NCBI RefSeq assembly: GCF_016026235.1
Contig: NZ_CP065613.1
DNA from: Escherichia coli
Lineage (GTDB): Bacteria; Pseudomonadota; Gammaproteobacteria; Enterobacterales; Enterobacteriaceae
Length of the DNA: 64,000 nt
Strand: one strand, 5' to 3'
In this document: in pieces, positions 49,125 to 59,848 of the stretch
Layout: every line of letters begins with the position of its first letter
Numbering within the stretch: the first letter of the stretch is position 1
Notes under the pieces: generated by a model
What the model was told of the DNA's origin: nothing
The model's database searches: none
What the model saw: only the letters and a program-made list of their open reading frames with translations
Position numbers and translations under genes: made by a program

Positions 49125-49215
49125 ACTGTAGGCCTGATAAGACGCGGCCCGCGTCGCATCAGGCAATCGGCGCACAATTGCCGGATGCGGCGTGAACGCC
49201 TTATCCGCCTACCGA
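49125..49215. repeat. REP/BIME element
   Basis: gtaggcctgataagacgcg...gccggatgcggcgtgaacgccttatccg. Confidence 0.85.
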
Positions 49216-52975: not shown

Positions 52976-55327
52976 TCAAAATAGCCCAAGTTGCCCGGTC
53001 ATAAGTGTAGCAAAATTATCCTCAATAAAAGGGAGTATTCCCTCCGCCACGGGTTGTAGCTGGCGGGTCAGATAGTGTTCGTAATCCAGTGGTGAACGTT
53101 GGTAGTCCAGCGGCTCCGGGCCGTTGGTGGTCCATACGTACTTAATGGTGCCGCGATTCTGATATTGCAAGGGGCGACCGCGCTTTTGATTTTCTTCATC
53201 GGCAAGGCGAGCGGCGCGTACATGAGGCGGAACATTACGCTGATATTCGCTCAGCGGACGGCGAAGGCGTTTACGGTAAACCAGCCGCGCATCCAGTTCA
53301 CCCGCCATCAGTTTGTCGATGGTTTGGCGGACGTACTCCTGATATGGCTCGTTGCGGAAGATACGCAGGTACAGCTCCTGCTGAAACTGCTGGGCCAGCG
53401 GCGTCCAGTCGGTGCGCACGGTTTCCAGCCCTTTAAACACCATCCGCTGCTTGTCGCCCTCCTGAATCAGCCCGGCGTAGCGCTTTTTACTGCCGGTATC
53501 AGCTCCGCGAATGGTTGGCATAAGAAAACGGCAGAAATGAGTTTCATACTCCAGTTCTAATGCGCTGGTCAGCCGTTGTTTTTGCAGCGTTTCCGCCCAC
53601 CAGGCGTTAACGTGCTGCACCAGTGCACGACCGATTTTCGCCGCCTCTTCTTCCGAATGTGCACCTTTTAGCCAGACAAAAGTCGAGTCGGTATCTCCGT
53701 AGATAACGTCGTAGCCCTGCGCTTCAATCAATGCTTTGGTCTGCCGCATGATCTGATGACCACGCATGGTGATCGACGATGCCAGGCGCGGATCGAAGAA
53801 GCGGCAGGCGGTGGTGCCGAGCACGCCATAAAAGGCATTCATAATGATCTTCAGCGCCTGCGAAAGCGGCTTATTACCCTGACGTTTGGCTTCATCGCGC
53901 CCGTGCCAGATGTTAGTCACAATCTCCGGCAGGCAATGTTTCTCCCGTGAGAACCAGGCATCGAGAAAACCTTCGGTACTGGGCTCTGGATCAGGTTGCG
54001 CCATGCCTTCAACCAGCCCGACGGGATCAATCAGAAAGGTGCGGATGATCGACGGGTACAGGCTTTTATAGTCCAGCACCAGCACTGAATCATAAAGCCC
54101 TGGCCGTGAATCCATCACGTAGCCGCCAGGGCTGGCGTGCGGCGGCACTTCGCCGAGATTAGGCGCGACATAACCAGCGCGATGCATTCGCGGAAAATAG
54201 AGATGACCAAACGCTGCCACCGAACCGCCGTGCCGATCCACCGGCAGGCCGTTCACCGTTGCTCGTTCGAGTAAAAATGGCATGATTTCAGTTTTGTGGA
54301 AGATCTGCGTCACCAGCTCGCAATCTTTCAGGTTATAAGTTGCCAGCGCAGGTTTATCTTCGGCGAAACGGCGGTCAATTTCGTCCATTCGATCCCACGG
54401 GTTATCGATAGATTTTCCTTCGCCTAATAGCTCCTGAGCGACAGTTTCCAGCGAGAATGAAGAGAAATTCCAGAACGCGGATTTCAGCGCCTCGATACCG
54501 TCGATAATTAGCCGACCTTTAGCCTGGGCAAAAAAGACGCCGTTTTTAAAGCCGTGCTCGCGCCACTCCAGCTCGCTATTATCGCGCCCAAGACGCAGCG
54601 GAAGACGGTAACGCTCGGCATGTTTTTGCAGCATTCGCAGATCGAACTGCACCACGTTCCAGCCGATGATCACATCGGGATCGTGGTTTGCAAACCAGGC
54701 GTTGAGTTTTTCCAGCAGCAGCGGGCGGCTGGCGACGTATTCCAGTTCGAAATCAAGCGAGGAGGCGTCGCCATTCTCCGGCCCCAGCATATAAACGATG
54801 CGCTGCCCGCAGCCTTCCAGGCCGATGCAGTACAGCTCACCGTGGCGGGTGGTTTCAATATCTATAGAAACCCACTTGAGCGGCGGACGATAGTCGGGAT
54901 GCGGTTTCAGACGGGCATTAACGATAGTGCCATTGTGCATATCACCCTCGACCCACACCGGTGAGGTGATAAACCGCTCCATCAGATAGCGTTCTGGCGG
55001 GCGCACATCGGCCTCGTAGACGGTAACGCCACCTTCACGCAGGCGCTTTTCGTAATTCATCAATTGGCGATGGGCGCGACAGTAAAGGCCATACACCGGC
55101 TGGCGGTGAAAATCCTTTAACGCCAGCGGTGTCAGGCGAAAGCCTTGTTCACCCTGCAAAATATGCTGAGCGCGGGGAACCTGATCGGCGGGAATAAACG
55201 CCACGGACTCTTGCGGTGCAAGCGTAACCTGCAACGGCCCGTTGTCCGTCGCCAGCCAGAAGGAGACTTCTGTCCCTTGCGGGGTGTCCCGCCAGTGTCG
55301 GGTTAAGATAAAACCTGCCTGCGCCAC
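52976..55327 (-). CDS. polB: DNA polymerase II
   Basis: 783 aa B-family polymerase (YGDTDS motif). Confidence 0.97.
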
Positions 55328-55401
55328 GCTGAAAATCCATCAAAAAACCAGGCTTGAGTATAGCCTGGTTTCGTTTGATTGGCTGTGGTTTTATACAGTC
55401 A

Positions 55402-56097
55402 TTACTGCCCGTAATATGCCTTCGCGCCATGCTTACGCAGATAGTGTTTATCCAGCAGCGTTTGCTGCATATCCGGTAACTGCGGCGCTAACTGACGGCA
55501 GAATATCCCCATATAAGCGACCTCTTCCAGCACGATGGCGTTATGCACCGCATCTTCGGCATTTTTGCCCCATGCAAACGGGCCGTGGGAATGGACCAGA
55601 ACGCTGGGCATTTGCGCTGCATCGATACCCTGTTTTTCAAAGGTTTCTACGATGACGTTACCGGTTTCCCACTCATATTCGCCGTTGATTTCTGCGTCGG
55701 TCATTTTGCGGGTGCAGGGAATGGTGCCGTAGAAATAGTCGGCGTGGGTGGTGCCGGTTGCTGGAATCGACTGACCCGCCTGCGCCCAGATGGTGGCGTG
55801 GCGCGAGTGCGTATGCACAATGCCGCCAATGGAGGGGAATGCCTGATAGAGTAGTCGGTGAGTTGGCGTATCGGAGGAGGGCTTTTTCGCACCTTCAACC
55901 ACTTCACCGGTTTCGATGCTGACCACGACCATATCGTCAGCGGTCATGATGCTGTAATCGACGCCGGAGGGTTTGATCACAAAGACGCCGCGCTCGCGAT
56001 CAACGGCGCTGACGTTGCCCCATGTGAGCGTGACCAGGTTGTGTTTTGGCAGCGCCAGGTTGGCTTCTAATACCTGGCGTTTGAGATCTTCTAACAT
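55402..56097 (-). CDS. araD: L-ribulose-5-phosphate 4-epimerase
   Basis: 231 aa. Confidence 0.97.
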
Positions 56098-56108
56098 GTT
56101 GACTCCTT

Positions 56109-56280
56109 CGTGCCGGATGCACTTTGCTTATCCGGTCTACAAAATCGCAGCGCGTAGGCCTGATAAGACGCGCCAGCGTCGCATCAGGCGTTGAATGCCG
56201 GATGCGCTTTGCTTATCCGGCCTACAAAAACACAGCGCGTAGGCCTGATAAGACGCGTCAGCGTCGCATCAGGCGTTACA
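56109..56280. repeat. Tandemly duplicated BIME (two REP pairs)
   Basis: gccggatgc..ctttgcttatccgg.ctacaaaa..cgcagcgcgtaggcctgataagacgcg.cagcgtcgcatcaggcgtt occurs twice in tandem. Confidence 0.85.
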
Positions 56281-56296
56281 TACCTGATGTGGCTAC

Positions 56297-57799
56297 TTAG
56301 CGACGAAATCCGTAATACACTTCGTTCCAGCGCAGTGCGTCTTTAAACGCTGGCAGGCGGGTGTCGTTATCAATCACCGTGATTTCAATGTCGTGCATCT
56401 CGGCGAACTGGCGCATATCGTTGAGGTTCAGCGCATGGCTGAAGACGGTATGGTGCGCGCCACCAGCGAGGATCCACGCTTCGGAAGCAGTTGGCAGATC
56501 CGGTTGCGCTTTCCACAGCGCATTCGCCACCGGCAGTTTCGGCAGGGAGTGCGGTGTTTTCACCGTGTCGATACAGTTAACCAGCAGACGGTAACGATCG
56601 CCGAGATCAATCAGGCTGGCGACAATCGCTGGACCGGTTTGGGTATTGAAGATCAGTCGGGCAGGATCGTCCTTACCACCAATACCGAGATGCTGAACGT
56701 CGAGGATCGGTTTCTCTTCTACGGCAATCGACGGGCAGACTTCCAGCATATGGGAGCCGAGCACCAGGTCATTACCTTTCTCGAAGTGATAGGTGTAGTC
56801 CTCCATAAAGGAGGTGCCGCCCTGCAGACCGGTTGACATCACCTTCATGATGCGAAGCAGGGCGGCGGTTTTCCAGTCGCCTTCGCCCGCAAAGCCGTAA
56901 CCCTGCTGCATCAGACGCTGTACGGCCAGACCTGGAAGCTGTTTCAGACCGTGCAAATCTTCAAAGGTGGTGGTGAACGCGTGGAAGCCACCTTGTTCCA
57001 GGAAACGCTTCATCCCCAGCTCAATACGCGCCGCTTCCAGCACGTTCTGTCGTTTTTCGCCGTGGATTTGTGTGGCAGGCGTCATGGTGTAGCAGCTTTC
57101 GTACTCATCGACCAGCGCGTTAACATCGCCGTCGCTGATGGAGTTCACCACCTGCACCAGATCGCCAACCGCCCAGGTATTGACGGAGAAACCGAACTTG
57201 ATCTGTGCGGCAACTTTATCACCATCGGTGACCGCTACTTCACGCATGTTATCGCCAAAACGGCAGACTTTCAGATGACGGGTATCCTGTTTAGAGACCG
57301 CCTGGCGCATCCAGGAGCCGATACGCTCATGGGCTTGTTTATCCTGCCAGTGACCGGTAACCACGGCATGTTGCTGACGCATACGCGCGCCAATGAAGCC
57401 GAACTCGCGACCGCCATGTGCAGTCTGGTTCAGGTTCATAAAGTCCATATCGATACTGTCCCACGGCAGCGCCGCGTTAAACTGGGTGTGGAATTGCAGC
57501 AACGGTTTGTTGAGCATGGTCAGGCCGTTGATCCACATTTTGGCCGGGGAGAAGGTGTGCAGCCACACCACCAGACCAGCGCAACGATCGTCGTAATTCG
57601 CGTCGCGGCAAATAGCGGTGATTTCATCCGGCGTGGTGCCCAGCGGTTTCAACACCAGTTTGCAGGGCAGTTTCGCTTCCGTATTCAGCGCATTAACAAC
57701 GTGCTCGGCATGTTGGGTGACCTGACGCAGGGTTTCCGGGCCATACAGATGCTGGCTGCCAATGACAAACCACACTTCATAATTATCAAAAATCGTCAT
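56297..57799 (-). CDS. araA: L-arabinose isomerase
   Basis: 500 aa from [16 protein letters not shown].. Confidence 0.97.
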
Positions 57800-57809
57800 T
57801 ATCGTGTCC

Positions 57810-59848
<2,039 letters not shown>

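Follow-up and report, generated by a model that had tools for sequence, protein, structure and literature searches.

The spacer between araA and araD in the E. coli DNA analysed here, a stretch of 64,000 nt that we refer to as the window, very probably contains a BIME-2 array of two 85-bp units situated inside the araBAD operon. This array is one unit shorter than the corresponding array of K-12. Across complete E. coli genomes the same spacer holds one, two or three units, and the haplotypes that they form imply that whole units have been gained and lost on repeated occasions.

A tandem array of Y and Z2 REPs between araA and araD

The distance from the araD start to the araA stop in the window is 199 bp (56098-56296). 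The genes on either side were placed from the list of open reading frames and, for araD and araA, also from a complete E. coli genome whose sequence matches the window exactly over 601 bp at this locus and whose RefSeq annotation gives the same genes (Table 1). Tandem Repeats Finder reports one array in the spacer, at 56111-56277, with a period of 85, 2.0 copies, 93% matches and no indels, and a repeat search resolves two head-to-tail copies of 85 nt, 56111-56195 and 56196-56280, that are 92% identical. Both analyses thus bear out the earlier note on this DNA, which had described a REP-pair (BIME) unit present twice in tandem at 56109-56280; the right-hand limit is the one given there, while the left-hand limit is off by 2 nt. 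The REP-pair copies are intergenic, falling between the araA stop and the araD start.

The two units share one layout. On the + strand, each comprises a 30-nt Y REP, a 13-nt linker, a 37-nt inverted Z2 REP and a 5-nt linker, and each contains a palindrome, GCCGGATGCG...CTTATCCGGCCTAC, plus an inverted palindrome, GCCTGATGCG...CTTATCAGGCCTAC. The arm of the Y REP is GCCGGATG on the + strand, and the Z2 REP, which has a long stem, reads GCCTGATGCGACGCTGGCGCGTC on the - strand. The second palindrome of each unit combines the arm GCCTGATG with the long stem, as in Z2-type REPs.

Table 1. Coordinates of the array, its components and the neighbouring genes in the window.
Feature	Position	Strand	Basis or remark
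polB	52976-55327	-	List of open reading frames
araD	55402-56097	-	List of open reading frames; RefSeq annotation of the genome identical over 601 bp
araD leader CGAAGGAGUCAAC (mRNA strand), then AUG at 56097-56095	56098-56110	-	Direct reading
araD Shine-Dalgarno AAGGAG (mRNA strand)	56103-56108	-	Nearest REP edge 2 nt upstream
Unit 1, Y-type REP TGCCGGATGCACTTTGCTTATCCGGTCTAC; two private substitutions relative to the K-12 units	56111-56140	+	REP types after PMC3333891
Unit 1, head-to-head linker, 13 nt, AAAATCGCAGCGC	56141-56153	.	Most variable segment from strain to strain
Unit 1, inverted Z2-type REP, GTAGGCCTGATAAGACGCGCCAGCGTCGCATCAGGCG on the + strand	56154-56190	-	Inverted repeat; hairpin in predicted RNA fold
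Match to naRNA4 (RF02564): unit 1 Z2 REP, junction, unit 2 Y REP	56157-56222	-	60.2 bits; threshold passed by a small margin
Tail-to-tail linker TTGAA at the unit 1/unit 2 junction	56191-56195	.	Direct reading
Unit 2, Y-type REP TGCCGGATGCGCTTTGCTTATCCGGCCTAC	56196-56225	+	Repeat search; core and arm matches
Unit 2, head-to-head linker, 13 nt, AAAAACACAGCGC	56226-56238	.	Direct reading
Unit 2, inverted Z2-type REP	56239-56275	-	Inverted repeat; core matches; RNA fold
TTACA and 16-nt degenerate REP remnant TACCTGATGTGGCTAC, adjoining the araA stop codon	56276-56296	.	Direct reading
araA stop codon (gene ends at 56297)	56297-56299	-	List of open reading frames; RefSeq annotation of the same identical genome
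araB	57810-59510	-	List of open reading frames

The four palindromes of the array have the characteristics of REPs: they are imperfect, span ~30-37 nt, possess arms of the form GCC(G/T)GATG...CTTATC(C/A)GGC with a GTAG/CTAC head, and match the REP consensus found elsewhere in the genome. Six loci of the window account for 12 matches to the core GCCKGATGCG, where 0.6 would be expected, and the other arm, CTTATCMGGCCTAC, is likewise present 12 times, compared with an expectation of 0.03; both totals greatly exceed what chance would produce. Five further REP or REP-pair sites are present in the window (15256-15341, 24273-24355, 28730-28811, 49128-49189 and 61598-61662), and among the REP loci of the window only the ara site shows tandem repetition. 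The family is a dispersed one: a 601-bp query matched each E. coli genome at a median of 16 places.

By definition, BIME-2 elements consist of z2 and y REPs, joined by short linkers and repeated several times in tandem (Ton-Hoang et al., 2012; PMC3333891). At the ara locus, Y REPs alternate with Z2 REPs of the opposite orientation, the linkers of 13 nt (head-to-head) and 5 nt (tail-to-tail) are too short for an L motif, and the unit is present twice here and one, two or three times in other genomes. Y and inverted Z2 REPs joined by short linkers into a tandem unit constitute the BIME-2 architecture, and this is the basis of our assignment. Compared with the BIME-2 arrays of the Gilson/Bachellier classification (PMC3333891), with which it has in common the alternating inverted Y/Z2 REPs, the short linkers, the tandem unit and a unit number that varies among strains, the ara array shows no difference in kind; the present allele is distinguished from that of K-12 by having two units instead of three, and a few of its substitutions are private. 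BIME-1, or RIP, elements also contain REPs in inverted orientation, but they pair Y with Z1 REPs, have a long conserved linker with an IHF site and occur as single copies. That class was ruled out for the ara array, with its tandem unit, its Z2 partner REP and its linker of 13 nt. BIME-2 elements are reportedly bound and cleaved by DNA gyrase, a finding credited to Espeli and Boccard in 1997, and at the level of DNA the ara array could, by analogy, share this known gyrase-site property of BIME-2 arrays.

Unit number in K-12 and other E. coli genomes

In MG1655 (NC_000913.3), araD starts at 66550 and araA ends at 66835. In the intervening 284 bp (66551-66834), the leader of 13 nt and the remnant of 16 nt are the same as in the window and enclose three units of 85 bp, in register with those of the window. 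The spacer of the window is exactly 85 bp, or one unit, shorter, in agreement with the difference of about 85 bp that the earlier note had given. That note had further staked its claim on MG1655 not sharing the BIME arrangement and spacer length of the window, and since MG1655 differs in both, the claim stands. Its proposal that REP copy number varies at this site also proved correct, given the one, two or three units of other complete genomes. The term "duplicated", which it applied to the array, should not be taken to mean a recent duplication from one copy, because 7 of the 85 positions distinguish the two units and an array of three is the state most often seen; the change to two units may have been either a loss from three or a gain from one.

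The frequencies of the alleles were estimated from a query consisting of 500 bp of the araD and araA flanks only, with 60 records taken at even steps through the ranking and spacer length given by the distance between the flanks. Fifty-nine of these records are complete E. coli genomes and were counted; the 60th is an engineered strain with a partial locus. The three-unit spacer of 284 bp is found in 25 of the 59 genomes, the two-unit spacer of 199 bp in 13 (~22%), and a one-unit spacer of 114 bp in seven, with the remaining 14 genomes having a spacer of 168 bp, in which one unit is accompanied by a 54-bp insert derived from a different dispersed repeat. Three units were the maximum among the 59 sampled genomes, none of which lacks the array completely, as all 59 keep at least one unit together with the remnant. 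These allele frequencies may be new as detail, and they reveal no new kind of biology.

Short-read assemblies can collapse tandem repeats, and we therefore weighed whether a three-unit array might have been collapsed to two units during sequencing or assembly. We reject this explanation, whose probability we regard as negligible. The two units of the window differ at 7 positions and carry private variants, the 85-bp period lies well inside a single read, and the identical 199-bp allele occurs, base for base, in the independent complete genome FDAARGOS_943. Moreover, the ~22% of sampled complete genomes that have a 199-bp spacer represent several haplotypes, including that of O157:H7.

The insert of the 168-bp alleles is a G+C-rich palindromic sequence of 54 bp (...CCCCTCACCCCGGCCCTCTCCCCAAAGGGGCGAGGGGG...) located between the araD ribosome-binding site and the single BIME unit, at a position equivalent to 56107-56110 of the window. 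It is carried by about a quarter (~24%) of the E. coli genomes sampled, for example EC10, and where it is present the Shine-Dalgarno context reads CAGGAG instead of AAGGAG. The insert is a member of a second family of dispersed repeats, found at a median of 12 places per genome, and it was recovered at an identity of at least 99% in 1,299 records; the 64-kb window contains no copy of it. We take it to resemble boxC.

Recurrent gain and loss of whole units

We read the sequence of the spacer in 18 further genomes in addition to the window. With the exception of the 54-bp insert, all of the length differences correspond to whole units in the same register. In each of the 19 distinct alleles (18 genomes and the window), NTGAA closes the internal units and TTACA the last one, and the 16-nt REP remnant next to the araA stop is present in every allele read. 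Six two-unit haplotypes were found, namely that shared by the window and FDAARGOS_1059 and those of O157:H7, strain 361, HS4, CMZE065 and OkiPb01703. T28R has a spacer of 114 bp with a single unit that is identical to unit 3 of K-12, and in Ecol_AZ161 the one unit present is chimeric, combining features of the first unit of MDR_56-type alleles with those of their third, and last, unit. Unit 2 of CMZE065 is likewise a chimera, of MDR_56-type units 2 and 3: it carries the linker (AAATCCGGAACGC) that B2-type alleles with three units have in their middle unit, joined to the terminal TTACA end. Since there are several unrelated two- and one-unit haplotypes, some of them chimeric, we conclude that whole units have been both gained and lost repeatedly at this locus.

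The patterns of haplotypes and chimeras are those expected from misaligned pairing between 85-bp direct repeats, and we infer that units may be gained and lost through such pairing, by way of either replication slippage or unequal homologous exchange. The REP-associated transposase TnpA-REP (RAYT) may also contribute to the gain and loss of units. TnpA-REP performs cleavage and strand transfer in vitro, activities that have been suggested to give rise to the amplification of BIMEs (Ton-Hoang et al., 2012; PMC3333891). Slippage or unequal exchange on the one hand, and transposase-mediated change on the other, are both compatible with the observed alleles. That the number of BIME-2 copies at a given locus varies between strains is already known (PMC3333891, citing Bachellier et al., 1997), and the araD-araA case is ordinary in this respect. 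A literature search, to which the survey lists of Bachellier 1997 and Ton-Hoang 2012 were external, found no paper on REPs at araA-araD.

RNA structure and signals in the spacer

The operon is transcribed from the - strand, and the array is therefore part of the araBAD mRNA. For the window allele, the predicted fold of the - strand RNA has an energy of -91.4 kcal/mol, compared with -72.5 ± 4.3 for shuffled sequences (z = -4.35), and all four REPs are predicted to form separate hairpins; the corresponding z for the K-12 allele is -6.0. A scan of 56098-56296 revealed no promoter-like site, and no intrinsic terminator, in the sense of a hairpin followed by a T-run, was found there on either strand, the REP hairpins having no T-run. 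An independent araD promoter and an intrinsic terminator were rejected on the strength of this empty scan, and with neither signal in the spacer, we conclude that araD is expressed by read-through of the array.

Variation among the units is concentrated outside the stems. Over the 23 distinct units, standard pairing is seen in 98.2% of stem cells, and variable positions account for 7 of 44 paired columns versus 16 of 41 unpaired ones. Compensatory double substitutions in the stems number 0 pairs, a value that shuffles reproduce, among 23 units that are very alike; because the units are so similar, these data provide no test of selection on structure. The commonest stem variant, an A to U change at alignment column 35 that is found in 4 of the 23 units, breaks its pair. 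Overall, three of the single stem changes leave a G-U pair on the mRNA strand versus nine cells in which the pair is broken, and we make no claim of strand-specific selection on the stems.

The spacer also produces a match to the Rfam family naRNA4 (RF02564), which on the - strand reaches 60.2 bits against a gathering score of 59.5. Qian et al. (2015; PMC4550694) proposed a role in the nucleoid for REP325 RNA, and one might accordingly ask whether the ara locus encodes a similar noncoding RNA of the nucleoid, one that would bind HU and bring about condensation of the chromosome. We consider this very unlikely. The family was defined on the REP325 unit (PMC4550694), a BIME-2 unit, and any Y/Z2 REP pair will therefore score, so that the match reflects REP homology; the + strand of the same region scores 41.7 bits, and a second - strand match that involves the second unit, at 56242-56306, scores only 33.9 bits. 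In addition, the spacer has no promoter-like site, and a 2026 preprint that shares the author Adhya with the 2015 paper found REP325/naRNA4 to be without measurable nucleoid compaction.

In the - strand RNA, the final codons of araA (UUUCGU or GAUUUC) are also predicted to pair in a short helix with ACGAAG/GGAGUC, which lies at the Shine-Dalgarno sequence of araD. The helix pairs 56080-56110 with 56297-56310, appears in the folds of both two- and three-unit alleles, and would close the whole array. This helix is probably fortuitous, because its partner sequence is altered in the alleles with the 54-bp insert.

Implications for expression of the ara operon

REPs inside operons are classically seen as obstacles to 3'-to-5' exonucleases, with a stabilising effect on the message upstream of them. 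The intercistronic REPs of malE-malF are said to stabilise the upstream mRNA, as Newbury, Higgins and co-workers reportedly found in 1987. They too are hairpins within a polycistronic mRNA that has proximal and distal genes, and the ara array resembles them in its position. The REP325/naRNA4 locus, where tandem BIME-2 units again lie between co-transcribed genes, offers a tested model of a combined terminator and stabiliser role. REP325 consists of six BIME-2 units between yjdM and yjdN, which belong to one operon; it stabilises the upstream transcript, lowers downstream expression ~8-10-fold, partly through Rho, and is expressed as a ladder of hairpin-ended species (bioRxiv 10.64898/2026.03.23.713779). 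According to the same preprint, tandem gene pairs separated by REPs are biased genome-wide to the upstream gene, and the effects of REPs are context-dependent. The two loci also differ: REP325 has six units (12 hairpins) and a disputed nucleoid role for naRNA4, whereas the ara array has two units and is known from sequence.

By analogy with these systems, every REP of the array, once transcribed from the - strand within the araBAD mRNA, would form a stable hairpin. The hairpins would hinder 3'-to-5' exonucleases and partly attenuate read-through, and the araB and araA message would consequently rise relative to that of araD. We suggest that the probable role of these hairpins is to form a barrier to decay or to attenuate transcription in part, to the benefit of araBA relative to araD. 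With fewer units a somewhat weaker effect would be expected, and a reduction by one unit, from three to two, would probably alter the phenotype little or not at all. Arabinose is toxic to cells that have lost araD, and strong attenuation ahead of araD would therefore be costly; for the same reason, a weak or modest effect is the most that we would expect. That four forms of the spacer coexist is a further argument for weak constraint.

The four length classes, each at appreciable frequency, and the differences in copy number both within and between lineages would also be seen if the array were selfish or neutral and played no part in the expression of the ara genes, being harmless in the intercistronic gap and drifting in copy number. 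We regard this as quite possible, although we lean against it. About a quarter of the genomes have exchanged the upstream units for an unrelated 54-bp repeat, with a resulting change in the sequence beside the araD Shine-Dalgarno that suggests loose constraint, and the stems give no covariation signal, the units being too alike. Neutrality sits less comfortably with the retention of at least one unit and the remnant in all 59 sampled genomes, and with the measurable effect of REP325 in a comparable setting. The REP stems are also less variable than the loops and linkers, though gene conversion among REPs could explain this difference.

The opposite proposal would make unit number a heritable dial of the AraB/AraA:AraD ratio, and hence of the level of toxic L-ribulose-5-phosphate, such that the differences between lineages arose by selection and not by drift. 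This seems to us improbable. In a weaker variant, the predicted 6-bp helix that would close the array could couple translation of araD to termination of araA; the helix is lost in the ~24% of genomes that carry the 54-bp insert.

The araD-araA spacer is one among many BIME-2 loci at which the number of units differs between E. coli strains, and as such it matters little. It could nevertheless be of use as a minor length marker, its alleles measuring 114, 168, 199 and 284 bp, and it calls for caution when the araBAD operon is aligned or engineered across strains. The natural series of one, two and three units at a single inducible operon is also handy for asking whether REP number tunes the ratio of upstream to downstream expression.

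Observations in the flanking sequence

The region from 55300 to 57000 contains a single terminator-like hairpin with a T-run, which lies on the + strand, in the gap between polB and araD, at 55345-55371 (+ strand coordinates). The stem of this hairpin is palindromic and could serve the - strand after araD as well.

Within thiP, which is encoded on the - strand, the window lacks, at ~63017-63024, 75 bp (25 codons, in frame) that are found in its closest genome, FDAARGOS_943. The junction of this deletion falls at an 8-bp direct repeat, GCCAGCAC. Eleven other best-matching genomes also exceed the span of the 20,001-bp query, five of them by 75 bp and six by more, the alignment itself having been made for FDAARGOS_943 only. 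Between positions 44000 and 64000, the window differs from FDAARGOS_943 by just 7 substitutions besides the thiP deletion.
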